64,000 nucleotides of DNA, taken from IMG/VR virus record IMGVR_UViG_3300028591_000213, positions 540 through 64,539 of that record. One strand, 5' to 3'. The stretch is from a virus. Its lineage: Duplodnaviria; Caudoviricetes. Positions 9,324 to 64,000 of the stretch are shown here, piece by piece. The notes beneath the pieces are model-generated. The model saw nothing but the letters and a program-made list of their open reading frames with translations. It searched no databases and had not been told where the DNA came from. Position numbers and translations under genes: made by a program. The first letter of the stretch is position 1, and every line of letters begins with the position of its first letter.

Positions 9324-10742
9324 ATGAAAAATGTGGTAGAAGAATTAAGGGAGAAGGTTGAGAATCAAAAAAAGATTAAAAAGATTATTTTTGACAATGA
9401 GCTTTTGCTAGAAAGGTTAATTAGGGAGAGTGATTTTTTAAAAGGCTCTAAGTATGATGATATAAATTTGAGGTATAAATATTTAAGAGTTGGCGGTTCT
9501 ATTGAGAATTATAAATGTCCATACTGTGGTAATGTTAGGAAATTGAATGCAAGTATGTTGGCTAACACTTGTGGCTCTAAAGAATGTATGCAGAAAGCAC
9601 AACATGATGCTAAGATAAAGATGCATGAGAACATGAGTGAAGAGACGAAAAAAATGATTCGTGATAAGATGAAGAAAACTTGTTTGGAGCGTTATGGCGT
9701 AGAGTTTTCCACACAGGCGAATATAATGAAAGAAAAGTCACGTACTACCAAGGGAGAGAAGTATGGAAATGAATTTTTTACTAATCAGGAGAAGCGTGAA
9801 AAAACTAATATTTTAAAATATGGTGGTATTGCGCCGTTATGTAGTGATTATGTTAAAAGAAAGATGGAGAATACCAACATTAATCGTTATGGCGCAAGGA
9901 ACGTTTTTCAATCTGAAAAAGTTAAAAATTTAATTAGGGAAACCAACTTAAAGAAATATGGCGTTGAATACCCAATGATGAGCAAGGAAATTCAGAAGAA
10001 GGTGAATTATTCGGAGGCTGTATCTAAGCAAATAATGTCTAAGAAGGAAAACGGTACTCTTCACACGTCAAGCCATGAAAAACAAATATATGAGTGGCTA
10101 AAAGATGAATTTGGTAACGTTGAGAAACAGTACACGGATGATAGATATAAGAATCCTGTAAATAACGTAAGATTTAAATGTGATTTTTACTTACCGGATT
10201 TTGATTTATTTATATATAATAGAGCAAGAAAACCCACTCATCTTAAGTGGGTGGGATGAATTGCCCAACCTTGGCTCTCGATGTATTTTCTGATAGTAAA
10301 AGTACTTGACAGAGATATAAACGCTGCAATGAATATCCTTTCAGAAGGATTAAATAATATATCGGCAGGAACTGTCGATTACACTGATGGAGCAGATGTA
10401 AGACCCTTTCAAGGGCAATCAGCTATGAAGTCAGAAGCCCACAAATCTTTAGTTTGTGGGTAGTTCACAGAGTATCAAGGGACATATCATCATGGAAAAG
10501 AACCATTTAATGAAAATATTTCATCTCATATGGACATTTTAAGAAAAATGGAGGAAAAAGCTTCTATGCATATTAATAGCGATTACACTGAAGCGATAAA
10601 AGTATGGACGCAAAAAGACCCATTAAAAAGGCAAGTTGCAAAAGATACTGGACTTAATTATTTGGAGATATGGAATAACAACGGAAAATGTCCCGATAAG
10701 GATGAGATTTTAAATTTAATATATAAAAAGATTAATAATTAA
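9324..10742 (+). pseudogene. Free-standing homing-endonuclease-like gene (Zn finger, RYGV-type repeats, C-terminal PD-(D/E)xK/Vsr-like domain) interrupted by a 255-bp IS mini-element
   Basis: Removing 10214-10468 restores FKCDFYLPDFDLFI-EYQGTYHHGK and joins ORF-track pieces 9324 and 10530 in one frame; repeats LERYGVE, KYGNE, KYGGI, RYGAR, KYGVE. Confidence 0.82.
10214..10468 (+). mobile_element. Non-autonomous IS200/IS605-family mini-element (LE hairpin, tnpB 3' remnant, omegaRNA, RE hairpin)
   Basis: Inserted 3' of TTTAT with no duplication; LE hairpin CCCACT..AGTGGG; TnpB C-terminal remnant LDRDINAAMNILSEGL; RE hairpin CCCACAAA-TCTTTAG-TTTGTGGG ending TTCAC; second copy at 63879. Confidence 0.85.
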
Positions 10743-39708: not shown

Positions 39709-39991
39709 AAAGTATTATGCGCGAAAAATATAGTGAAGAAAATGTAACATGGTCATATATTGAAAAATATGTACCATATATTAAAACAATTTGGTCAATG
39801 CAAAAAAATGGCATACCAAAATATACCTTTATAATTGAAGAGAAAAACTAAAATAAATAGGGAACGATATGCCTGTTGATACAAGTTCCCTTTTCTGAAA
39901 AAATATACAAAAATGAGGAATTTGCATAAACAATTCCTCATTTTTTTTGCATATCTACTGATATTTATATATAAATAAAATTAAAGATTAT

Positions 39992-41278
39992 ATGAAATAT
40001 TTAAAACTATTTGAAACTACAGCTCAGTATGAAGAAGTTAGGCAAAACTAAGTTTTGCCTAACGTATCATTATGTGAAGATGCTCCAACTACCGTGCATT
40101 ATAATCCTTATGTGCCGCAACATGATTATTCCCAAGACTACTTGACATTCGTTGCATTAAGTCAAGGCACAATAACAATAAATTATGATGAAGCTGATGG
40201 CTCTCCAACTACCATTTCATACAGCACAGATGATGGTACAACTTGGACTCAAATAACAACAACCACAGAACCATATACCATAACGACCCTTAATGTTGGT
40301 GACAAATTACTTTTAAAAGGAAATAATTCAAGTTATTATTATAGTGCTTTAATTAGAGGAACTGCCACATTTGAAGTTTGTGGCAACATAATGTCCTTAA
40401 TCTATGGAGATAACTTTGTCGGGCAAACAACTCTAACAGAAAGCGGTACTTTCGATTCATTTTTTTATGGTAACATTAATCTTATAAGTGCTGAAAATCT
40501 TGTATTACCTGCTACAACGTTAGCAAGTGGCTGTTATCAAAGTATGTTCCAAGGTTGCACCTCGTTAACGACAGCGCCTGAATTACCTGCTACAACGTTG
40601 GCAGACAACTGTTATAATAGTATGTTCGATGGTTGCACCTCGCTAACGACAGCGCCTGAATTACCAGCAGAAACGTTAGCAGACGACTGTTATGATGGTA
40701 TGTTCAGTGGTTGCGACTTGTTAACGACAGCACCTGAATTACCTGCTACAACGTTGGCAGACTACTGTTATAATAGTATGTTCTATGGTTGCACCTCGTT
40801 AACGACAGCGCCTGAATTACCTGCTACAACGTTGGCAGACTACTGTTATAGTAATATGTTCGAAGGTTGCACCTCGTTAACGACAGCACCTGAATTACCC
40901 GCTACAACGTTAGCAAGTGGCTGTTATCAAAGTATGTTCATAGGCTGCACCTCGTTAACGACAGCGCCTGAATTACCTGCTACAACGTTAGAAGAATCAT
41001 GTTATAATAGTATGTTCAGTGGTTGCACCTCGTTAACGACAGCGCCTGAATTACCTGCTACAACGTTAGCAGAATCATGTTATTATCAGATGTTCGATGG
41101 TTGTTCTAATCTAAATAGCATTACTTGTCTTGCAACTGATATAAGTGCAAGTAACTGTACGCAAGCTTGGGTAAATAGTGTTTCATCAAGTGGTACATTT
41201 ACCAAGGCGGAAAGTATGAAAAGTTGGACAAGAGACATTAATGGCATACCAACCTATTGGACGATAAAAGATGCATAG
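39992..41278 (+). CDS. BspA-like leucine-rich-repeat protein A; in-frame TAA at codon 20 (40049-40051)
   Basis: MKYLKLFETTAQYEEVRQN*VLPNVSLC...; 7 full plus 1 partial 26-aa (78-bp) LPATTLxxxCYxxMFxGCTSLTTAPE repeats; the ORF track starts at the TTG after the stop. Confidence 0.8.
40037..40063. promoter_or_regulatory. Perfect 27-bp palindrome (13-bp arms, 1-nt centre) carrying the TAA/TTA codon, copy A
   Basis: GTTAGGCAAAACT-A-AGTTTTGCCTAAC; arms are exact reverse complements. Regulatory role is inferred. Confidence 0.75.
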
Positions 41279-41482
41279 TAACACATATAAAAGGATAGTT
41301 CAAAAGGACTATCCTTTTTATATAATAAAGTGTGATGGATAAAAAGGTATCATAGCATTTGGCAAAAAAATCTGCAAGAACATTATCGTTTCTTGCAGAT
41401 TTGCATATTTATTCAAAAGGAGCGAATTGTGTCAACAGGTATATAATTCCCTTATCTTATTAAATAGATAGCTCCCTTTATT

Positions 41483-43520: not shown

Positions 43521-43553
43521 AAAGCGAAGTCATTATTTTTGGCTTCGCTTTTT
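43521..43553. terminator. Bidirectional hairpin terminator overlapping the stop of the 43533 gene
   Basis: AAAAGCGAAGTC-ATTATTTTT-GGCTTCGCTTTT. Confidence 0.6.
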
Positions 43554-44945
43554 TATATATTTAATTGAACCACAGTCATATATTTTATAAGATTTTAAAG
43601 AAGTATAAGTATTACTTTTTTTTGTTCTCTCTATTTTGTTTCCATTTATAAAGGTATAAGATGGTTTAATATATTCATCTTTTTTAAATCCACAAATGGT
43701 AAAAACATTATTATCATTTGACCATCTTCTATCAACAAAAGTAATTAAAGACTTATATTGATAATTTTTTTCAAAAAATGAAATTAATTTAGAGCATATT
43801 CCATCGCAAATATAGTTTATATCTGTTGCTAACCTTTTTAAAATATAATTTTCTCCACTCTTTAAAAAAGATGCTACTCCTATTAGTTCGCCATTATAAA
43901 ATGCCCCTATATTAATACTACTTTTTGTAAAGCTTTCTATATGATTTTTTTTCAAAAATTTATTTGAATCTTCTTTCAATATTTCTTTTATATCACATTT
44001 TCTAGCCATTATTTTTTCTTTTTTATTTAGCCCAAAAATATGTAATATTTTTGATTTTACAATATCATTTTTATTTAGCCATTCATCTTCAAATATTTGA
44101 AGCAGTTTAATTCCATTTTTAAGGCATTCTATAGTTTTACTTAAATGATAGTTTTTGTCTTTTCCGAATTTTTCAGAATGCCATCGTAATCCATTATATT
44201 CTATAGCTATATTAAATTTAGGGGCGAAAATGTCTATTTCTTTCTTAGAGTTTGCAAACAAATTCCTTGTTCTTTCAATTATTTCTATATTATTCTCTCT
44301 TAAAAAGTCTATTATTTCTTGTTCTTGATTCGATACGGAGTGACTACATTTTGGGCATCCATGGCCATGAAGATGACTACTTATTTCTTGAGAAAATATT
44401 CCATGTTCTGGACAGATAATATCAATTTTTTCCTTTTCGTTTTTAATATCTTTTTCAATATACTTGTATTTCGTTTTGTGCTTTTCATTTGCCCGTCTAA
44501 CAAATTCATCAAATCTAATAATTCTATTTTTGTTTTTTGCTTCATTGGCGCATTTTGGACAGCCCCTTCCACTCAAATGATTCTGTGGTGTTTGCCAAAA
44601 TTCACCGTGTTCCGGACAGTTTATACAAATTTTATCTTCACGCGTTTTATATTCTACTTTTGAATAATCATATTTGTTTCCATGAACAGCAATTGCTTTT
44701 TCTAAAAAATTATTAAAAGACTTAATTTTACTATTCTTTATTCTTTCATTTCCACATTGTCTACATCCCTTTCCGTGTAAATGCTCTTGAGCAACTTGCC
44801 AAAATTCGCCATGTCTTGGGCAAATTATGCAAATCTTTTCGTACATTTTTACAATGTTAGATTTTGAGTAGTCATACTTATCGCCATGAACTTGTTTTGC
44901 CCTTTTTAAAAATTCATCTTTTGAAACTATTCTACTCATTGGCAT
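43533..44945 (-). CDS. Zinc-finger-repeat homing-endonuclease-like protein (DUF723-type repeats, PD-(D/E)xK domain, GNAT-like C-terminus)
   Basis: Three repeats VHGDKYDYSK....ICPxHGEFWQ..HL.G.GCPKC; EIDIFAPKFNIAIEYNGLRWHS; KRLAT..TFVDRRWS..YDCG. Confidence 0.78.
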   Translation of the reverse strand: MPMSRIVSKDEFLKRAKQVHGDKYDYSKSNIVKMYEKICIICPRHGEFWQVAQEHLHGKGCRQCGNERIKNSKIKSFNNFLEKAIAVHGNKYDYSKVEYKTREDKICINCPEHGEFWQTPQNHLSGRGCPKCANEAKNKNRIIRFDEFVRRANEKHKTKYKYIEKDIKNEKEKIDIICPEHGIFSQEISSHLHGHGCPKCSHSVSNQEQEIIDFLRENNIEIIERTRNLFANSKKEIDIFAPKFNIAIEYNGLRWHSEKFGKDKNYHLSKTIECLKNGIKLLQIFEDEWLNKNDIVKSKILHIFGLNKKEKIMARKCDIKEILKEDSNKFLKKNHIESFTKSSINIGAFYNGELIGVASFLKSGENYILKRLATDINYICDGICSKLISFFEKNYQYKSLITFVDRRWSNDNNVFTICGFKKDEYIKPSYTFINGNKIERTKKSNTYTSLKSYKIYDCGSIKYIKKRSQK

Positions 44946-50345: not shown

Positions 50346-50353
50346 GGGAATGA
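50334..50353 (+). repeat. 20-bp direct repeat, copy 1 (GAAAAAAATTAAGGGAATGA)
   Basis: Identical to 52207-52226; the pair brackets the 50350 endonuclease gene. Confidence 0.85.
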
Positions 50354-52218
50354 ATTTTATAAGTACTGAAGAATTTATAAAAAAAGCAAAATTAATGCAC
50401 GGCGACGAATATGATTATTCAAAAACGCAGTGCATTAATTGTTATAGTAAGGTTTGTATAATATGCCCAAAACACGGTGAGTTTTGGCAAAGTGTATATA
50501 GTCATTTATCTGGGCATGGATGCCCAAAATGTAAATGCGAAAAAATGTGGAATTCTAGAGGAAGAATGACAACAGAACATTTTATTGATGCGGCAAGAAA
50601 AATTCACGGAAATAAATATGATTATTCAAAAGTTGAATATAAAAACGCAAAGGAAAAAGTTTGTATAATTTGTTCAGAGCATGGGGAATTTTGGCAAACT
50701 CCATATAACCATTTAAAGGGGCATGGGTGCAGAAAATGTTTCAATGAAATGTCATCAAAAAAACAAAAATCAACGATTAAAGAATTTATTGATAAAGCTA
50801 AAGCAATACATGGAAATAAATATGATTATTCAAAAGTAAATTATATTAATAACCAAACAAAGATTTGCATAATATGTCCGGAACACGGTGAGTTTTTTCA
50901 AACGCCAAGTTCTCATTTGGCCGGAAATGGGTGTAAAATGTGTTCCAAAGTTAAAGAAAACAAGTACACAACCGAAACATTTATTAAGGCATTAAAAAAA
51001 ATCCATGGAAACAAATATGATTATTCTAAAGTTAAATATAATGGGTGCGATGAGTATGTTACTGTTATTTGTCCAAAGCATGGAGAATTTAAAATTAGGG
51101 CAAGGCATTTAATTGGAGGAGTTGGTTGTAAAAAATGTGGCATTGAAAAAAGGAAAACCAAAAGGCTAAGTAATTCAGATGAATTTATAGAGAAAGCAAG
51201 AAAAATACATGGCAATAAATATGATTATTCAAAAGTAGAATATATAAATGCTCATACAAAAGTGTGTATTGTATGCCCCGAACATGGAGAATTCTGGATG
51301 ACGCCAAATGACCATTTAAGTAATGCTTATGGATGTAGAAAGTGCTGTAAAAATATATCTAAAGCGGAAAATAGCATTGCAGAAATCATTAAAGAGTATG
51401 GTATAAAAGTAGAACAAGGGAATAGAAAAATTTTGAATGGAAAAGAAATAGATATATTTTTACCAGATTATGACATAGGGATAGAGTATGATGGACTTAA
51501 ATGGCATTCAGATGAATATTGCAAAGATAGATTGTATCATTTTAAAAAAACAAATGAATGCTTAAATAAAGGAATAGGTTTAATTCATATTTTTGAGGAC
51601 GAATATTATATGCACAAAGAAATTGTTTTATCAAAAATAAAACATTTACTTCACATTAATAATGAACTTGAAAAAATAGATGCTAGAAAATGTATTGTAA
51701 ACGAAATAACAAACAAAACTGCTTCAATTTTTTTTGAAAAAAATCACATACAAGGGTTTTCAAAATCTACTGTTTATTTAGGATGTTTTAAAGATAAAGA
51801 ACTTATTGGCGCTATGAGCTTTATAAAAAGGAAAGAAAAATGTTGGGAGTTAAATCGTTGCGCATCAGATATAAATTATCAATGCAGAGGAGTAATTGGA
51901 AAATTATTATCTTATTTTAAAAAACATTATGAATGGAATACAATAAAAACATTTGCTGATAAAAAATGGATAATTAATGAAAATGAAAATTTATATTCAA
52001 AGCTTGGCTTTAAAAAATGTATTGTCTTAAAACCAGACTACAAGTATTGTAAGGGAAATACAAAAGAAAGAATTAATAAAGATAATTTCAAAAAGAAATT
52101 AATTAATAAAAACCACGACTTGTCATCGTCTATGTCAAAAACAGAAATGGCTAAAAAATTAGGCTATCATAAAATATGGGACTGTGGCTTAATAAAATAC
52201 GTACTTGAAAAAAATTAA
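50350..52218 (+). CDS. Zinc-finger-repeat homing-endonuclease-like protein (five DUF723-type repeats, PD-(D/E)xK domain, GNAT-like C-terminus)
   Basis: IHGNKYDYSKVxY....KVCIICPEHGEFWQ repeats; KEIDIFLPDYDIGIEYDGLKWHS; ELNRCAS..TFADKKW..IWDCG; same architecture as the 43533 gene. Confidence 0.8.
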   Translation: MNFISTEEFIKKAKLMHGDEYDYSKTQCINCYSKVCIICPKHGEFWQSVYSHLSGHGCPKCKCEKMWNSRGRMTTEHFIDAARKIHGNKYDYSKVEYKNAKEKVCIICSEHGEFWQTPYNHLKGHGCRKCFNEMSSKKQKSTIKEFIDKAKAIHGNKYDYSKVNYINNQTKICIICPEHGEFFQTPSSHLAGNGCKMCSKVKENKYTTETFIKALKKIHGNKYDYSKVKYNGCDEYVTVICPKHGEFKIRARHLIGGVGCKKCGIEKRKTKRLSNSDEFIEKARKIHGNKYDYSKVEYINAHTKVCIVCPEHGEFWMTPNDHLSNAYGCRKCCKNISKAENSIAEIIKEYGIKVEQGNRKILNGKEIDIFLPDYDIGIEYDGLKWHSDEYCKDRLYHFKKTNECLNKGIGLIHIFEDEYYMHKEIVLSKIKHLLHINNELEKIDARKCIVNEITNKTASIFFEKNHIQGFSKSTVYLGCFKDKELIGAMSFIKRKEKCWELNRCASDINYQCRGVIGKLLSYFKKHYEWNTIKTFADKKWIINENENLYSKLGFKKCIVLKPDYKYCKGNTKERINKDNFKKKLINKNHDLSSSMSKTEMAKKLGYHKIWDCGLIKYVLEKN

Positions 52219-52226
52219 GGGAATGA
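52207..52226 (+). repeat. 20-bp direct repeat, copy 2
   Basis: Identical to 50334-50353; overlaps the terminus of cassette B. Confidence 0.85.
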
Positions 52227-52399
52227 TATACCTGTTGACACAGGCCGCTCCTTTTGAATAAATATGCAAATCTGCAAGAACCTCATCGTTTCTTGCAGAT
52301 TTTTTTGTTAAATGTTATGATACCTTTTTATCCATCCCACTTTATTATATAAAAAGGATAGTTCACTGTTTGAACTATCCCTTATATGTGTGTGCCAAA

Positions 52400-53680
52400 T
52401 TATGCTGCATCTTTCACAGTCCAACCACTTGGAGTACCATTAGTACCTTCTGTCCAATTACTCATACTTGCTGCCTTGGTAAATGTACCACTTGCTGCAA
52501 CACCATTTACCCAATTAGATGTACAGTTAGACGCACTAATGTCAGTTGCAAGACAAGTAATACTATTTAACGAGGTGCAACCATAGAACATACTTTCATA
52601 ACAGCGGTTTGCCAACGTTGTAGCAGGTAGTTCAGGCGCTGTTGTTAACGATGTGCAACCATTGAACATACCACTATAACAGCCGTTTGCCAACGTTGTA
52701 GCAGGTAATTCAGGCGCTGTTGTTAACGATGTGCAACCATTGAACATACCACTATAACAGTCGTCTGCTAACGTTTCTGCTGGTAATTCAGGTGCTGTCG
52801 TTAGACTTGTACAACCATAGAACATCTGATAATAACATTCGCTTGCTAACGTTGTAGCAGGTAATTTAGGTGCTGTCGTTAACGATTTGCAACCATAGAA
52901 CATATTACTATAACAGGAGTATTCCAACTTTGTAGCAGGTAATAATTTAGGTGCTGTCGTTAACGATTTGCAACCATAGAACATGCTATTATAACAGTTG
53001 TCTGCCAACGTTGTAGCAGGTAATAATTCAGGTGCTGTCGTTAACGAGGTGCAACCTTGGAACATATTACTATAACAGCTGTTTGCCAACGTTGTAGCAG
53101 GTAATTTGGGTGCTGTCGTTAATGATGTGCAACCTTTGAACATATTACGATAACAGTTGTCTGCCAACGTTGTAGCAGGTAATGATAGGTTTTTAGCACT
53201 TACCACATTAGTATTACCACTGAATAAGCAATAAAATGCATATTCCTTTCCATTTAGACTTGTTTGGGCTTTAAAATTATAGCCAAACAGTAATGACATT
53301 GCATTACCTTCTACAGAGTATCTAACACCAGTAGCACCACTGAACCTACCAATACCTTTATTTGTTTGTGGTGCCGGTGTTCCTTTCCATAGAACCTTAT
53401 CACCTGCTGCAACAGATATTGTATCTGCACTTGTTACAGCCGACCAATTCTCACCGTTATCCTTTGAGTAAGATAGTGTATTAGCAGTTGTTGAACCACT
53501 CCACTTAATATTTCCGCCACTTGTCACTATCATTGTGAAATAGTCTTGGGAATAATCATGAAAAGGGTTATAATGCACGGTAGTTGGAGCATCTTCACAT
53601 AATGATACGTTAGGCAAAACTTAGTTTTGCCTAACTTCTTCATACTGAGCTGTTGTTTTAAAAAGTTTTAAGTATTTCAT
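52400..53680 (-). CDS. BspA-like leucine-rich-repeat protein B; in-frame TAA at codon 20 (53623-53621)
   Basis: MKYLKLFKTTAQYEEVRQN*VLPNVSLC...; 7 full plus 1 partial LPATTLxxxCYxxMFxGC repeats. Confidence 0.8.
53609..53635. promoter_or_regulatory. Perfect 27-bp palindrome carrying the TAA/TTA codon, copy B
   Basis: Plus strand GTTAGGCAAAACT-T-AGTTTTGCCTAAC, i.e. TAA on the coding minus strand. Regulatory role is inferred. Confidence 0.75.
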
Positions 53681-53885
53681 ATTATTTTATATTTTTATAT
53701 AAATATCAGTAGATATGCAAAAAAAAAATGAGGAGTTGCATAAACAATTCCTCATTTTTGTATTTTTATTCAGAAAAGGGAGATTGTGTCAACAGGTATA
53801 TAATTACCTTATGAATAATGCCTCTTATTAAGATAAGTGGTATTTTTTTGTTTTATAGAATATTTATAGTAAAAGTTTTTTATAC

Positions 53886-54477: not shown

Positions 54478-57400
54478 ATGGGTAATTATTTGAAATTATT
54501 TAATACTCAAGAGGATTATAACAAGCACAAGGAGAGCGCATCTACAATGCCAAATGTTTCACACTGTATAGATAATATAAATGTATATTTGGAAGAATGC
54601 GCCCCTTCAATAGCATATGAACTTATAGGTAATCCTTCTTATCCGTCCACAATTAATGGAATGGATGAATCGTTTGATATAACATTTACTTGTAAAAAAA
54701 CAACAAACACCATAGTTTGTTCAACAATCGTTACCAATGAAACAAATACCGTAACGGTATATATTGGAAAAAATACAAGTACTGAAACTGACAGGGTAAT
54801 AAGTGATACATTTAACTATAATGGATTGCTTATACCATATACAATTACACAATATAAACGTTGCACAGCAAATACAGTTTATGAATTAAATGGCACTCCT
54901 TCTTATCCAAGTGAAATAGAAGGTGATGTTGATTCATTTAATTTGACATTTAGTTATAGAAAAATAGTTACAGATAAAAATTGTAATGAAACCGTAACTA
55001 CCGGTAGTGATACTACTGTCATATATGTTGGTGTTAACCCAAATAGCGGTACATCACGAATAATATCAGATTCATATAACTACAGCGGCATGAGCGTGCC
55101 TTATACTGTCACACAGAATAAAATGTGTACTGCCGGTATAGTATATGAACAAGTTGGTGATGCCACTTATCCAAGCGAAATAGAATATAATGTTTCAGCA
55201 TTTAATTTATCATTTAGCTATAAGAAAATAAATGTAGATAAATATTGTAACGAAACCGTAATAGAAACCAGTAGTGTTACCACTTCAATAACTGTAGGAG
55301 AGAATTCTCTATATGAAGACAGAACAATAAGTAGTAGCTATACATTTAATGGCATAGTTATTAACTATTCATTGGTTCAGAAAAAGAATAATCATTATCA
55401 AATAGTAAATACATTTAATGTAAGAAGTACAAGCAATAATACTAACATCGCTTCAAATACTACTCCAATAGATTGCATAGAAATAGATAATACAGTATAT
55501 AGAACAGTTAGTAGTGGATTTAGATTTAGCACTACAGGTTCTCATACTGTTAAATATTCTTTGAAAAACGCAATAGAAACTGGAGGAGGAATATTTGGTG
55601 GATGCGAAGATTTAACAAATTCAGTTATTGAAGAAGGAGTAGCCAAAATTGGCAATTCTTTATATGCCGAGTGCAATAATCTGTCAAGCGTTACAATACC
55701 TGAAAGTACCACAATAATTGATGATGGGGCATTCTTTGCATGTCCAAATTTATCAAAAGTAAATAGTGAAACATCTTATACGGTTAATATACCAAATAAT
55801 GTAACAACTATTAATAATGATGTGTTTAGTAACTGTACAAAAATTAAAACGGTTAATTTTAATGATGATTCCTCATTAACAACCATTGGAAATGAGGCAT
55901 TTAGTAGATGTGACATGCTTGAAACAATAAACATACCAAGCGGAGTTACAAGTATTGGCAACAGTGCGTTTAAAGCATCAACCGGCCTCACGAGCGTTTA
56001 TCTTAATCCGGTAGAGCCACCAATAATTGGAGCATCAGCATTTACCGAAAATGCAGACGACAGAAAAATATATGTTACATGCTATAGCATTAACACATAT
56101 AAAGCAGACGAAGATTGGAGCGAATATACAAGTGGAATAGTATCAGAAGATGGTTGTCCGTTGGTTGCAACATATAACGTTACATCAACAACGGAAGCTA
56201 CAGCATTAAGGGCCATATGGTACAGCGAAAATATAGAGTCTATGGAAATAGATGGTGTAGAATTGTCAAGTCCTGTTACAAGTTATACATTTGATACAAT
56301 AGGAATACATGAAGTTAAATATTATCCTAAAGACCAAACTGTCACTTATTCAGGCGTTACGTTTGGCGCAAGTGCAACAGTCGTACCAGATTATATGTTC
56401 CATAATATTGATAAGTTAATTAGTATAGATATTCCAGATAGCTTTACAACTATCGGAGAACGTGCTTTTCACGGATGTAGTGGGCTAACAACAATACATT
56501 TTGGACAAAGAGTCAATAACTTTAGCACATATGGCGTTTTTGGAAATTGCACAAGTTTACCTGTTGTAAATAATATTAGATACGCAGATACATATGCCGT
56601 TGAAGCTGTTGACAAAACACTTAGCTCATATACAATAAAAGATGGTACAAAATTTATTGGGCGTAATTGTTTTGCAAGCTGTAGTGGACTTACAAGCGTT
56701 AATTTGCCTGATAGTCTTATAAAGTTCGAAACCAATGCTTTTTGGAAATGTAGTGGTCTCACAAGTGTTACAATACCAAATGGAGTAACACACATTGGAG
56801 GTGGAGCTTTCTATTATTGCACTAGCTTAACAAATATAAATATACCAAATAGTGTTACTGGTATATACAGCGGAGCATTCCGAGACTGTAGTGGATTAAC
56901 AAGTGTAACCATACCTGATAGCGTAACATATGTTGATGGAGATATATTTAGTGATTGTACGAGTTTACCGGTAGAAAATAACATTAGATATGCCGATACA
57001 TTTGTGGTCGAAGCTACTGATAAAACTTTATCAACATATACAATAAAAAATACAACAAGATTTATTGGTAACAGCTCTTTCAGTGGTTGTAGTAATCTTA
57101 CAAGCATAACAATTCCAAGTAACGTAACAAGCATTGGTGGCAGCGTTTTCTCTAACTGTAGCAATCTTACAAGTATAGTCATACCTGACAACGTTACATC
57201 TGTTGGCAGTGCTATATTTGCTAATTGTACAAGTTTAACATCTGTTACCATGTCGCCAAACATCACGGTAATTGGCCAAGATGCTTTCAAAGGTTGCAGT
57301 AGTTTAACTTCTGTTAATTTGTCAGATAATATAACATCAATTGGCGATGGAGCTTTTTCGGGCTGTACAAGTCTAAGTAGTTTAACAATTCCATCCGGCT

Positions 57401-60770: not shown

Positions 60771-61307
60771 ATGGAATTATCGCAATTATTTAGAAGGTTT
60801 TTAAAAGAAAATAACATATATTATGCTTATAGCGACGGACGAATGTCTGGTATTAAAGGAACATACTTTTTAAGTTCTGATGAACATTTATCAAAAAAAA
60901 TTTATGTTTATGGAGGATTATACGATTTTTTTCGGATTACCGCCGGATGCTTATCAATGTTTAAAGGACATGCCAACACCCCCAAAAGAAGAAGCCTTTA
61001 TCGTTTAAATAAAAAATGGAAAGATTTTTTAAAAAATACTTACGTTCAGCACAATTTATCAGTGGGAGATGAAGTTAAACTTTGTTCATACCAAAAGATG
61101 GAATTTTTAGTGAAAGAAATAAAAAATAATGGTTTTGTTACTGTTTGCTCAAATAACCGATTGTATAACAATGATTCTTTTAATATACCTATATATGCAA
61201 TAGAGTCAAAAGTTAAAGGCAATCTAATAAAAAATTATTATATAAATGATGGAGAAAACACATATGGGAAAATTGACGGAGAATTCAATGAAATACAGTT
61301 ACAATGA
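60771..61307 (+). CDS. Hypothetical protein
   Basis: 178-aa ORF with ATG. Confidence 0.55.
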   Translation: MELSQLFRRFLKENNIYYAYSDGRMSGIKGTYFLSSDEHLSKKIYVYGGLYDFFRITAGCLSMFKGHANTPKRRSLYRLNKKWKDFLKNTYVQHNLSVGDEVKLCSYQKMEFLVKEIKNNGFVTVCSNNRLYNNDSFNIPIYAIESKVKGNLIKNYYINDGENTYGKIDGEFNEIQLQ

Positions 61308-62442
61308 CATATTAATTAAACCAGCAATCCTATCTACAATCAGTCACAGGGCAGAATGCAATCCTTTTGACGATAATGGCAAGCTACCATTATTTACAGC
61401 GCCTATGGATAGCGTTGTTGGGGTTGATAATTTCGAGTTGTTTGAACAAAATGGTATAATTCCAATTCTTCCAAGAACGATTGATTTAAAGACAAGAATT
61501 GAATTTTCCTTTAACAACAAATGGGCGGCGTTTTCATTGCAAGAATTTGAAGATGAGTTTACAAAAGAGCATAAAACGCATAAAGATACCATTAAGGCAC
61601 TTATTGATATTGCAAATGGGCATGTAGCAAGACTGTATGAGGCTGTGAGAGCATCAAAGAATATATTTGGAGATTCCATTGTTGTAATGGTTGGCAATAT
61701 TGCAAATCCAGAAACATATAGGGCATGTGTAGAAAACCACGTGGATTATGTTAGATGCTCAGTAGGCACTGGCAATTGCTGTATAACATCAAGTAATACC
61801 GCCATAGGTTATCCTATTGCCTCACTAATATCAGAAATTGCAGAAATTAAACAAGAATATATTGATAAAGGAATAGATAATAATTCATTGCCAAAAATTA
61901 TTGCTGATGGAGGGGTTAGAAATTATTCAGATGTAATAAAAGCAATAGCACTTGGGTCAGATTATGTAATGTGTGGAAGCATATTCTCAAAAATGCTAGA
62001 ATCATCAGCTTTAAAATATATGGAACGTTATTCATCGGTAGGCAAACCAATAAATTTAAAATTTCCAATTAATAGATATGAAAATTTAAGATATGAAAAT
62101 GGAAAATGGTATGGAGATTATACAGATGAATTTATTGGTAAAATGTCCAATGATGGAAGAAATACAGAAAAACATAATCACCATATTGGAACTATAATAG
62201 CAAAAACATATGGTATGGCATCAAAAGCTGGGCAAATTGCAATGAAAGGAGAAAAAACGCATACCAGTGAAGGTATAGAAAAAAACATAAAAGTAGAATA
62301 TACCATGAGCACATGGGTCGAAAATATGACAGATTATTTAAGGTCAGCAATGAGCTATACCAATTCAAAAACACTTGATGAACTTAAAAAAGCAGAAATT
62401 GTAATTATTTCAAATAATACATATAATTCTGTTAATAAGTGA
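61288..62442 (+). CDS. IMP dehydrogenase / GMP reductase family protein
   Basis: YNDILIKP, FTAPMD, IDIANGH, SVGTGNCCIT, IIADGG, VMCGS, YGMAS, SEG, LRSAMSY; start MKYSYND at 61288. Confidence 0.88.
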   Translation: MKYSYNDILIKPAILSTISHRAECNPFDDNGKLPLFTAPMDSVVGVDNFELFEQNGIIPILPRTIDLKTRIEFSFNNKWAAFSLQEFEDEFTKEHKTHKDTIKALIDIANGHVARLYEAVRASKNIFGDSIVVMVGNIANPETYRACVENHVDYVRCSVGTGNCCITSSNTAIGYPIASLISEIAEIKQEYIDKGIDNNSLPKIIADGGVRNYSDVIKAIALGSDYVMCGSIFSKMLESSALKYMERYSSVGKPINLKFPINRYENLRYENGKWYGDYTDEFIGKMSNDGRNTEKHNHHIGTIIAKTYGMASKAGQIAMKGEKTHTSEGIEKNIKVEYTMSTWVENMTDYLRSAMSYTNSKTLDELKKAEIVIISNNTYNSVNK

Positions 62443-62477
62443 TAAAATGCTTCAAGCCTTGGTAGGCATTGAAGAAA

Positions 62478-62592
62478 TAACGGACCGTAGGTAAGCGGTT
62501 TGAAGGGCGTTGAGGGTAAAGTGGTTGTACTCCCTATGAAACGCCAAGATAGTAAATCCTGAAGGTTTATGCCAACAGGTATATCATTACCT
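62478..62592 (+). ncRNA. Orphan TnpB omegaRNA-like structured RNA
   Basis: ACCG/CGGT stem, then GGCGTT-GAGGG...CCCT-ATGA-AACGCC, resembling the conserved omegaRNA hairpin; GC-rich intergenic block; no tnpB ORF adjacent. Confidence 0.5.
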
Positions 62593-62625
62593 AAAATACT
62601 TCATTGTTTAATTACTTTTTTTAAG

Positions 62626-62652
62626 AGTCGGAATTTTATTCCGACTTTTTTT
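62626..62652 (+). terminator. Rho-independent terminator
   Basis: AGTCGGAA-TTTTA-TTCCGACT plus U-tract. Confidence 0.7.
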
Positions 62653-62696
62653 GTTTACTTTTCATATTTAATTATTATATTTTATAAAAAAAGACA

Positions 62697-63410
62697 ATGG
62701 AAGATAGCATAGCAGTAGTAATTTGTTCTCGTAATAACGATGAACGTAAAAATAAAATAATAGAACACGTGCAAAGTACTTGTGGATGCAATGTACACAT
62801 ATTTTATATATATAACCCAGAAGGAGTAGGGCTTACTGAAATATATAACACAGTTCTTTCACCAGAAAAATGTGAATATGACGTTATTATATATGTTCAC
62901 GATGATGTTGAATTTCTAAGAAAAGGCTGGGGAGCCGAAATATTAAGGCTTTTCAATGAGCACGAAGATTATGGCATAATTGGCGTTGCTGGCTCTGCAC
63001 AATTTGATGAAAACGCAGCATGGTGGCAATATGAAAAGAAATATGGGCAAGTTTTGCATCGCCATGAAGGAAAATCGTGGCTAACATCATTTTCTCCATT
63101 ATTGGATAAGGATTTGCAAGAGGTATGTGTAATAGATGGGTTATTTATTGCTGTTCATAGAAAGAGAATAACGAAACAATTTGATAAGGATTTGAAAGGC
63201 TTCGATTACTATGATATAACTTTTTGCCTTGACAATTATTTGGATGGAAAAACAAAGATTGGCGTTACAACAAATATAAGGTTGGCTCACAATTCAATTG
63301 GCCAGATGAGGGAGACTTGGTATGCTGCTAGAGAATATGTAAATCAAAAGTATAAAGATTATTATCCAATAAACGTTGATGATAGGAGACAGAAAAATAA
63401 TAGAAGATAA
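62697..63410 (+). CDS. Glycosyltransferase family 2-like protein
   Basis: IAVVICS, YVHDDVEF (DxD-like), IIGVAGS, VIDGLFIA, FDYYDITFC. Confidence 0.8.
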   Translation: MEDSIAVVICSRNNDERKNKIIEHVQSTCGCNVHIFYIYNPEGVGLTEIYNTVLSPEKCEYDVIIYVHDDVEFLRKGWGAEILRLFNEHEDYGIIGVAGSAQFDENAAWWQYEKKYGQVLHRHEGKSWLTSFSPLLDKDLQEVCVIDGLFIAVHRKRITKQFDKDLKGFDYYDITFCLDNYLDGKTKIGVTTNIRLAHNSIGQMRETWYAAREYVNQKYKDYYPINVDDRRQKNNRR

Positions 63411-63878
63411 ATGCTCGGAACTAGGTTTTAAGCTTGTTGATAATGATTTTGATTATGATTTAAATAGAGATGCTCGTTTTAAGGTTATTTGTTTAAAATG
63501 TGGTAATGAGTCTTATAAAACGTTTGTAACGCTAGTTAAAAAATCATGTAAATGCAAGTTTTGCCACGAAAGGAGAAGAAACTATCATAATTCTCGTGAT
63601 GAAATACTGCCATTAATAAAATCAGCTTGCGAAAATAATGACTATATTTTTTTAGATTTTGTTGGCGGAAAATGGATAGGCTGTAGAAAAACTAAATTAT
63701 TGGTTAAATGTAAAAATTGTGGTAAAATAACAGAAAAAAACTATGATAATTTGGTAAACAAAAATAGTAAATGCATTTGTCATAGAATTGAAAAAATCAA
63801 AAAGAAAAATGTTTTATCTGAAAATGCTGTCAAAGAAACGATAAATTATATTTCAAAAATCAATAACTTTACCTTTAT
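63376..63878 (+). pseudogene. Zinc-finger homing-endonuclease-like gene interrupted by the IS mini-element
   Basis: CLKC, CKFC, CKNC, CIC zinc-knuckle repeats; frame runs into the element at TTTAT and stops. Confidence 0.65.
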
Positions 63879-64000
63879 ATATAATAGAGCAAGAAAACCC
63901 ACTCATCTTCAGTGGGTGGGATGAATTGCTCAACCTTGGCTCTCGATGTATTTTCTGATAGTAAAAGTACTTGACAGAGATATAAACGCTGCAATGAATA
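63879..64000 (+). mobile_element. Second copy of the IS200/IS605 mini-element (truncated by window end)
   Basis: 122 bp matching 10214-10335 with 2 substitutions; again directly 3' of TTTAT. Confidence 0.88.

Follow-up and report, generated by a model that had tools for sequence, protein, structure and literature searches.

A probable tnpB-less omegaRNA remnant ending in an IS1595-type inverted repeat in a tailed-phage genome

Near the right end of a 64,000-nucleotide stretch of Caudoviricetes DNA (the window, G000:C1:540-64539, from the 64.5-kb linear virus record IMGVR_UViG_3300028591_000213, rated ~20% complete), a short block at 62450-62592 is placed between the stop codon of an IMPDH/GMP-reductase-like gene (61246-62442, + strand; Pfam PF00478, E = 3e-35) and an intrinsic terminator of 12 pairs followed by a T run (62623-62649, +), with a glycosyltransferase gene (62697-63410) downstream of the terminator. 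The G+C fraction of 62450-62549 is 0.48, against 0.18-0.35 in the surrounding DNA. A first-pass annotation, made from the letters alone, had recognized in this GC-rich intergenic block the stems of an omegaRNA, the guide RNA of TnpB proteins, followed by a terminator, and had proposed that its 23-nt 3' end (62570-62592) is a guide aimed at the ends of leucine-rich repeat (LRR) cassettes in the same window. We find that block, stems and terminator are as described, and we hold with high confidence that the block is what remains of an omegaRNA module and, jointly, that the 23-base motif is an IS1595-type transposon end.

No terminator lies between the IMPDH-like gene and the block, so the RNA would be co-transcribed as the 3' untranslated region (UTR) of that gene, sharing the terminator at 62623-62649. 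In a relative whose IMPDH-like gene is 71% identical at the amino-acid level (L083), the stop codon is followed directly by a terminator with no RNA block, which argues that the block is an insertion and not the native 3' UTR. A candidate sigma-70-like promoter at 62399-62427 was set aside, as such sites are at chance level (11 versus 12.7 expected), and a scan of the window for tRNA and tmRNA genes found none.

Comparison with relatives identifies the RNA. The block folds better than shuffled sequence on both strands (z = -3.6 for + and -3.8 for -), and since the two scores are alike, folding alone cannot tell the strand. A scan of IMG/VR with a degenerate form of the motif gave 54 loci, 11 with the same GC-rich RNA upstream, and a second scan, which combined the motif core with the RNA's AAATCCT box, returned 23 loci, comprising 10 homologues and 13 unrelated sequences, with the homologue L024 not recovered. 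A covariance model, R2 (alignment A3), built on nine relatives with the window left out, matches 62451-62592 on the + strand with 137.4 bits (E = 1.9e-29) and 20/20 model pairs canonical; the four cassette ends score only 27-40 bits, via their last ~25 bases. Predicted folds place scaffold hairpins at 62450-62474, 62481-62502 and 62506-62545 and a terminal hairpin at 62558-62579 (all +). Compensatory changes on both sides are found in 8 of the 12 consensus pairs of a ten-sequence alignment. Hairpin 1 differs from that of L024 and L065 by a paired change (CUUCAA/UUGAAG versus CCUCAA/UUGAGG) that keeps the pairing. In 5/6 homologues, the window among them, the minimum-energy fold joins the inner bases of the motif (CAACAGG) to CCU.GUUG further upstream; in the window, CCUG at 62558-61 is paired with CAGG at 62576-79, enclosing GGU/GCC. 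This predicted terminal stem is consistent with a scaffold role for the end of the motif, although it is not proof of one. Judged by homology, then, we regard 62451-62592 as a true omegaRNA scaffold.

A search of Rfam at E values up to 10 over 62300-62800 returns no relevant family; the weak matches at 62540-62659, such as L20_leader (27 bits versus a gathering score of 58.7), are driven by the terminator and were discarded. Because this appears to be an omegaRNA sub-family without a curated model, the Rfam failure says little: the covariance-model check suggested at the first pass comes out negative with Rfam and strongly positive with the model built from relatives. A blastn search (word size 11) of the INPHARED GenBank phages with 62430-62660 gives no match, and an exact 18-mer of hairpin 2 is found at 0 loci in IMG/VR, the relatives differing there by a few bases.

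In the relatives, which are ruminant-gut phages with several contigs of 235-412 kb, the RNA has the position expected of an omegaRNA: it lies directly 3' of, or starts in the last codons of, an intact tnpB open reading frame (ORF) of 374-430 aa at 7 loci (L059, L065, L077, L078, L087, which is the same as L024, and L084 and L089, further elements of record G005). All 6/6 ORFs scanned carry HTH_OrfB_IS605, OrfB_IS605 and Cas12f1-like_TNB domains (E = 1e-14 to 1e-27), and the L089 tnpB is covered by a PF07282 match; the tnpB of L073 is cut by the contig end and that of L064 is truncated. These TnpBs keep the motifs GIDLG, CLE(D/N)LN and DRD(V/I)NAA, which we take to be the D, E and D positions of RuvC I-III, so they do not look like nuclease-dead repressors; a repressor of the TldR type, considered as a candidate partner of the RNA, was rejected on these apparent positions.

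The same alignments bear on the motif. It is invariant or nearly so in all ten aligned sequences (A1, A2), which come from different insertion sites, and the similarity among homologues stops exactly at its last base, beyond which the flanks are unrelated. An inverted copy lies beyond tnpB, 1.36-1.53 kb upstream, in L059, L065, L077, L078 and L084, and 165-502 bp upstream in the internally deleted L070, L072 and L064. The 1.36-1.53-kb elements hold tnpB only, with no TnpA. The copies form terminal inverted repeats of 19-20 bp, GGRAAY.ATATACYTGTTG ... CAACAGGTATAT.RTTYCC, and when element ends are read as GGRAA...TTYCC and the 8 outer bases are compared, a perfect 8/8 target duplication is found in 7/8 tnpB or mini elements with both ends. 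Other copies without tnpB exist, namely L070 and L072, which are two-ended mini-elements, and the solo end L061/L075. One 69-kb contig holds both L072 and the full tnpB element L073, and their RNAs are nearly identical. Four full tnpB genes lie in the 99.5 kb of G005, 1/5 related records searched has a tnpB, and G004, a 401-kb record rated complete that has the repeats, has none.

The junctions of the tnpB-type elements have a regularity of their own: the 8-bp duplication starts with T in 7/7 (L059, L064, L065, L070, L072, L077, L084) and is preceded by A in 6/7, whereas the duplications of the transposase-bearing elements described below start with A or T without this pattern. This may be the trace of a transposon-associated motif (TAM) requirement in a small sample (n = 7).

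We find that the same 19-mer bounds elements with an IS1595 transposase. In record G003 (L085), a repeat pair surrounds a 282-aa ORF with DDE_Tnp_IS1595 (PF12762, E = 7e-42) and Zn_ribbon_IS1595 (PF12760), adjoining an LRR_5 gene. A search of IMG/VR with this transposase gave 63 loci, and at 13 of these both a left and a right repeat can be placed, at <=4 mismatches, within 4 kb; perfect 8/8 duplications flank 10 of these pairs (L094, L095, L097-L099, L103, L104, L108, L109 and L115, L097-L099 being one element present in three contigs), L096 has 7/8, and two have none: L092, which is the L085 locus again, and L111, where the transposase lies outside the repeat pair. A DDE_Tnp_IS1595 domain lies between the repeats in L085/L092, L094-L099, L103, L104, L108, L109 and L115. 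Since the repeats bound IS1595-transposase elements with 8-bp duplications, the repeat is the end of an IS1595-family element, and the window motif, whose core at 62573-62591 (+) is a solo right terminal inverted repeat with 2 mismatches to the consensus, is on this homology an IS1595-type terminal inverted repeat and not a guide. The fallback offered at the first pass, an IS607-like right end, was right in calling the motif a transposon right end but named the wrong family: the inverted repeats and the 8-bp duplications of the relatives exclude an IS200/IS605 or IS607 right end, and the transposase is of the DDE type. The 63 transposase loci are all without a tnpB in the surrounding 3.5 kb, so the tnpB elements would depend on transposase supplied in trans. 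No IS1595 transposase was found in the window or its record, and the repeat copies in the window are therefore non-autonomous. G004 (L086), with four repeat copies and one repeat-flanked 578-aa LRR_5 gene, has neither tnpB nor IS1595 transposase, so any transposase would come from outside that phage.

The likeness of the RNA's 3' end to the cassette termini, which drew attention to the block, is real. The 23-mer at 62570-62592 (+) recurs at 52218-52240 (-), the cassette-B terminus, with 2 mismatches (the 21/23 identity first noted), at 53787-53809 (+) with 2 and at 41430-41452 (+) with 3, and 100 shuffles give zero matches. The fourth cassette terminus, 39859-39882 (-), is weaker, with >3 mismatches, and keeps an exact 12-mer core, CAACAGGYATAT, which occurs in 5 copies in the window versus 0.06 expected. 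Beyond the window, a sixth copy of the motif (G000:C1:303-327) forms one end of a third LRR cassette, which the contig end truncates. A search of the window for the terminal repeat gives 5 copies at <=3 mismatches, that is, two pairs and the solo right end; a 5-mismatch match at 57187, inside an LRR gene, was taken as chance. The RNA and the cassettes match because both carry the presumed transposase-binding end.

The pairs delimit LRR cassette A (39860-41451, +; repeats 39860-39878 and 41433-41451; LRR_5 gene 39992-41278) and its inverted copy, cassette B (52219-53808, -; repeats 52219-52237 and 53790-53808; LRR gene 52400-53680, -); the third, cassette C (G000:C1:1-327, L004, -), lies upstream of the window and is cut by the contig start. 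LRR cargo lies between the same repeats in cassettes A and B, in L086 of the 401-kb record, in L088 and, beside the transposase, in L085, and in a comparison by eye ~50 bases beyond the repeat in the cassette ends resemble the left end of L085/L092. These arrangements indicate that the repeats enclose alternative cargoes, in some elements a TnpB/omegaRNA module and in others an LRR gene.

The cassettes show further features. Separated by 11 kb and opposite in orientation, A and B share 79-93% identity over hundreds of bases, and 93% over the first 133 bases of the gene region; homologous recombination between them would invert a segment with primase, SMC-like and sigma-like genes. Codon 20 of the LRR genes forms the middle of a perfect palindrome, AGGCAAAAC-TWA-GTTTTGCCT (40043-40063; 53609-53629, -; and ~185-205, -, of L004 in G000:C1). 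In A and B the centre is TAA, an in-frame stop, and the long ORF restarts at a downstream TTG; in C it is TTA (Leu) and the frame is open. TAA and TTA are reverse complements, so a flip of the palindrome would toggle between stop and leucine, and the palindrome may be an on/off switch or, alternatively, a single mutation spread by gene conversion.

The window copy of the RNA retains part of its gene. The last 14 codons and stop of a tnpB, encoding LQALVGIEEITDRR, occupy 62450-62494 (+) and resemble the C-termini of intact TnpBs, namely the ...PQALVGFEEK(V/A)(L/E)EITDRR of L087 and L065, with a 12-nt in-frame gap relative to both (alignments A1/A2); the L087 protein ends ...PQALVGFEEKVLEITDRR. 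Directly abutting the remnant, 62443-62450 (+) reads TAAAATGC, which matches 7/8 bases of TAAAATAC at 62592-62599, just beyond the repeat, and is the probable left copy of the 8-bp duplication; we estimate the chance of such a match at ~0.01, allowing some boundary freedom. The element would thus have inserted between the IMPDH-like stop codon and the terminator, duplicating TAAAATAC, and a later deletion would have taken the left repeat together with tnpB up to its last 14 codons, halting at the first hairpin of the RNA. Because the 7/8 copy abuts the remnant, the deletion appears to have begun exactly at the left element boundary, although the order of these events is our reconstruction. With a single end only, the window copy cannot transpose. 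A DNA contig from another run (X4) has the same gene/RNA junction at ~3% divergence, with 12 extra bases shared with the TnpB-linked relatives, which indicates an arrangement that is passed on and continues to change. In one X4 contig, 62501-62559 is missing.

A full element consists of IS1595-type repeats around tnpB and its omegaRNA only, and we propose that transposase is supplied in trans by autonomous copies. The RNA would start in the last tnpB codons and run through the right inverted repeat into flanking DNA, so that the guide of a full element would comprise the duplication and the flank and recognize the uninterrupted site. In TnpB omegaRNAs the scaffold ends at the transposon right end and the guide is the flank. 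In Fanzor elements within cut-and-paste transposons the inverted repeat and duplication lie in the scaffold and the RNA extends ~15 nt beyond (PMC10711439). By analogy with these TnpB and Fanzor guide RNAs, the latter running through inverted repeat and duplication (PMC10711439), the scaffold/guide boundary, which the first pass could not place, would fall at 62591/62592. The candidate guide position is then the flank at 62592-62612 (+), which is the duplication TAAAATAC (62592-62599) followed by flanking DNA and is unrelated among homologues from 62592 onwards. The window RNA, presumably transcribed in the 3' UTR of the IMPDH-like gene, could act only with a cognate TnpB in trans, and its guide would be this flank and not the motif.

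Taken as a whole, the explanation that the block is a tnpB-less remnant, and that its shared ending is an IS1595-type inverted-repeat end instead of a guide, is in our judgement highly probable. Several observations weigh against parts of it. The LRR-bearing pairs have no target duplication (2/8 matching bases in cassette A, 2/8 in B, 3/8 in L086 and 4/8 in L085), so only the ends themselves speak for transposition of the cassettes; the flanks may have been shuffled by recombination between copies, and flank pairings tried by eye after an A-B inversion, with cassette C and with the solo end gave no match. Among the tnpB-bearing elements, L078 is the exception that lacks a duplication, and at the window copy the left 7/8 match could be chance in AT-rich DNA. 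Binding of the transposase to these ends is presumed from the repeats. For the RNA, an invariant repeat leaves no room for covariation in the terminal stem of which it forms part, and that stem is complete in 5/9 aligned sequences; the single-sequence folding z-scores of the homologues are modest (-0.9 to -3.1), and no Rfam 15 family reaches its gathering score across the whole window. Finally, the contigs of this phage in two RNA libraries end at 62374 (X2) and 62391 (X3), and the RNA region is covered there by relatives' sequences only, X2 record 2 being an L024-like full element with the tnpB end, the RNA and 167 nt of flank.

Two other accounts of the motif fit much less well. That its 23 nucleotides steer a protein of the TnpB family to all four cassette ends, which would then be repressed, cut or rearranged, draws on a match far above chance and on a genuine omegaRNA scaffold, yet a guide should vary with the site, and this segment is kept in 10/10 aligned homologues from different sites with unrelated DNA after it. 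Its inner part is predicted to be paired within the scaffold, an inverted copy stands at the other end of the element with the target duplications outside, the same repeat bounds IS1595-transposase elements without any such RNA, and the family TnpBs, at what we take to be the RuvC positions, do not look nuclease-dead; we give this account almost no weight. Equally improbable is that the motif is a conserved insertion target or a regulatory phage site on which tnpB elements and cassettes repeatedly land, a version of which was also raised at the first pass. The partnerless solo copies (the window, L061/L075 and L244) and the LRR cassettes without duplications would fit such a site, but the 8-bp duplication lies just outside the motif on both sides in 7/8 tnpB or mini elements and 10/13 transposase elements, the motif is inverted at the two ends, and the surrounding sites are unrelated.

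A question of a different kind is whether the remnant still works. It could be a functional stand-alone guide RNA, used in trans by a TnpB from the unseen ~80% of the genome or from a co-infecting relative, with a flank guide (TAAAATAC and the following bases) that cuts insertion-free alleles, e.g., those of competing phages, and so favours inheritance of the region. The scaffold is intact in all 20 model pairs, with the compensatory change in hairpin 1 relative to L024 and L065; the deletion removed tnpB yet halted at the 5' edge of the RNA; tnpB-less copies recur, one of them (L072) alongside L073 with its nearly identical RNA; and X4 testifies to an inherited junction. The first pass had placed the cognate gene outside the window, and we indeed find no tnpB or TldR gene of this RNA family anywhere in the 64.5-kb record, which at ~20% completeness could miss one, G005 having its four within 99.5 kb. 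Set against this are that absence itself, the scarcity of tnpB among related records and its lack in the complete G004, and the RNA-library contigs that do not cover the locus. The candidate guide has no second match in the window at <=3 mismatches, and the 31 IMG/VR matches to the guide 18-mer are all in unrelated contexts, with no empty site and no target among them; in L061, also a solo copy, the inner stem is disrupted, as in decaying relics. We therefore consider activity in trans rather unlikely for this locus, and think that the window copy is probably a present-day relic without function.

Two further sets of observations concern the rest of the record and possible hosts. A second, unrelated TnpB-derived mini-element of ~255 bp at window ~10215-10469 has a RuvC-III remnant (LDRDINAAMNIL...) and terminal hairpins, and sits in frame after ...DFDLFI of the gene at 9324-10742, splitting it; a 98%-identical copy at 63874-64000, which runs off the contig end, occupies the same position in a paralogous gene. 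It finds no match in Rfam and looks like an IS200/IS605-type omegaRNA-bearing miniature inverted-repeat transposable element (MITE) homed into paralogues. Those paralogues, with ...HG.KYDYSK..Y... zinc-ribbon-like modules and an endonuclease-like C-terminus (43533-44945, -; 50350-52218, +; 9324-10742, +; 63376-end, +), may be free-standing homing-endonuclease-like genes; the mini-element sits in two of them, and one runs right up to the left repeat of cassette B. Both contig ends of the record break within repeats, cassette C at the start and the repeated mini-element at the end. In bacterial and archaeal genomes, a pattern scan gave at least 120 loci, and R2 run on 80 of them gave one partial match of 47 bits (L244), where 2196-2239 of a 5.5-kb contig hold only the last ~45 nt of the RNA and the inverted repeat. 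The contig is binned to a Paludibacteraceae metagenome-assembled genome (MAG) and its small genes look phage-like; it is a mis-binned phage fragment or a weak host hint, too weak for naming a host.

Set beside known systems, the elements combine traits that usually occur apart. They resemble IS200/IS605 and IS607 in their tnpB, with helix-turn-helix (HTH), OrfB_IS605 and zinc-ribbon (TNB) domains, and in a structured RNA of ~140 nt that runs from the tnpB 3' end to the right end and is followed by variable flank; unlike them, the phage elements have inverted repeats and duplications and no TnpA, and the window copy has lost tnpB. With IS1595-family elements (ISXO2-like) they share the repeats, the 8-bp duplications and, in the autonomous copies, DDE_Tnp_IS1595 and Zn_ribbon_IS1595, and they differ in their cargo, which is an LRR_5 gene or a tnpB-omegaRNA module, and in their occurrence in phage genomes. 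The IS1595 family makes 8-bp duplications, carries passenger genes and has MITE-like derivatives. Like Fanzor1 and Fanzor2* elements (e.g., the ascovirus SfAV element), they are non-autonomous, have repeats and duplications and encode only a TnpB-like nuclease; Fanzors, however, belong to eukaryotes and their viruses, whereas here the TnpB is of prokaryotic type (374-430 aa), in bacteriophages and between IS1595 ends. IS200/IS605 and IS607 lack terminal inverted repeats and target duplications (PMC13565253; PMC6188088), and according to a 2026 review prokaryotic TnpB with DDE transposons is rare, the cases given being ISL2, IS630 and IS1031, which are bounded by inverted repeats and co-encode TnpB with the transposase (PMC13565253). 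The phage elements likewise place TnpB outside IS605/IS607 in repeat-bounded elements, but with no tnpB near the 63 transposase loci, and the families named there do not include IS1595. In titles and abstract openings of the open-access literature we found no pairing of IS1595 with TnpB, and searches of open-access text gave no account of phage tnpB elements that are of IS1595 type and lack a transposase; a cyanophage preprint that deals with TnpB and with invertible segments is unrelated. TnpB inside IS1595-type phage elements thus appears to be a previously undescribed form of an association that is known but rare; the orphan copy in the window is an ordinary decay product, and the novelty lies in the element family.

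The attractive idea of an RNA aimed at the cassettes therefore gives way to the simpler one of shared transposon ends, and the LRR genes of these phages turn out to be packaged between the same ends as tnpB modules. Prokaryotic TnpB has been described almost only in IS200/IS605 and IS607, which excise scarlessly. The elements described here offer a bacterial and phage system for asking how a single DNA end can serve both a guide RNA and a DDE transposase, and a set of phages in which to ask whether omegaRNA-only derivatives work in trans. A speculative extension, which we consider unlikely, is that an IS1595-type DDE transposon captured a TnpB-omegaRNA module and that its tnpB-less copies act as extra guide genes in a multi-guide system without an array. 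If true, one TnpB would police several insertion sites, biasing the inheritance of neighbouring phage genes in co-infection, and the capture would be a prokaryotic counterpart of the Fanzor capture, in which the inverted repeat became the last segment of the scaffold.

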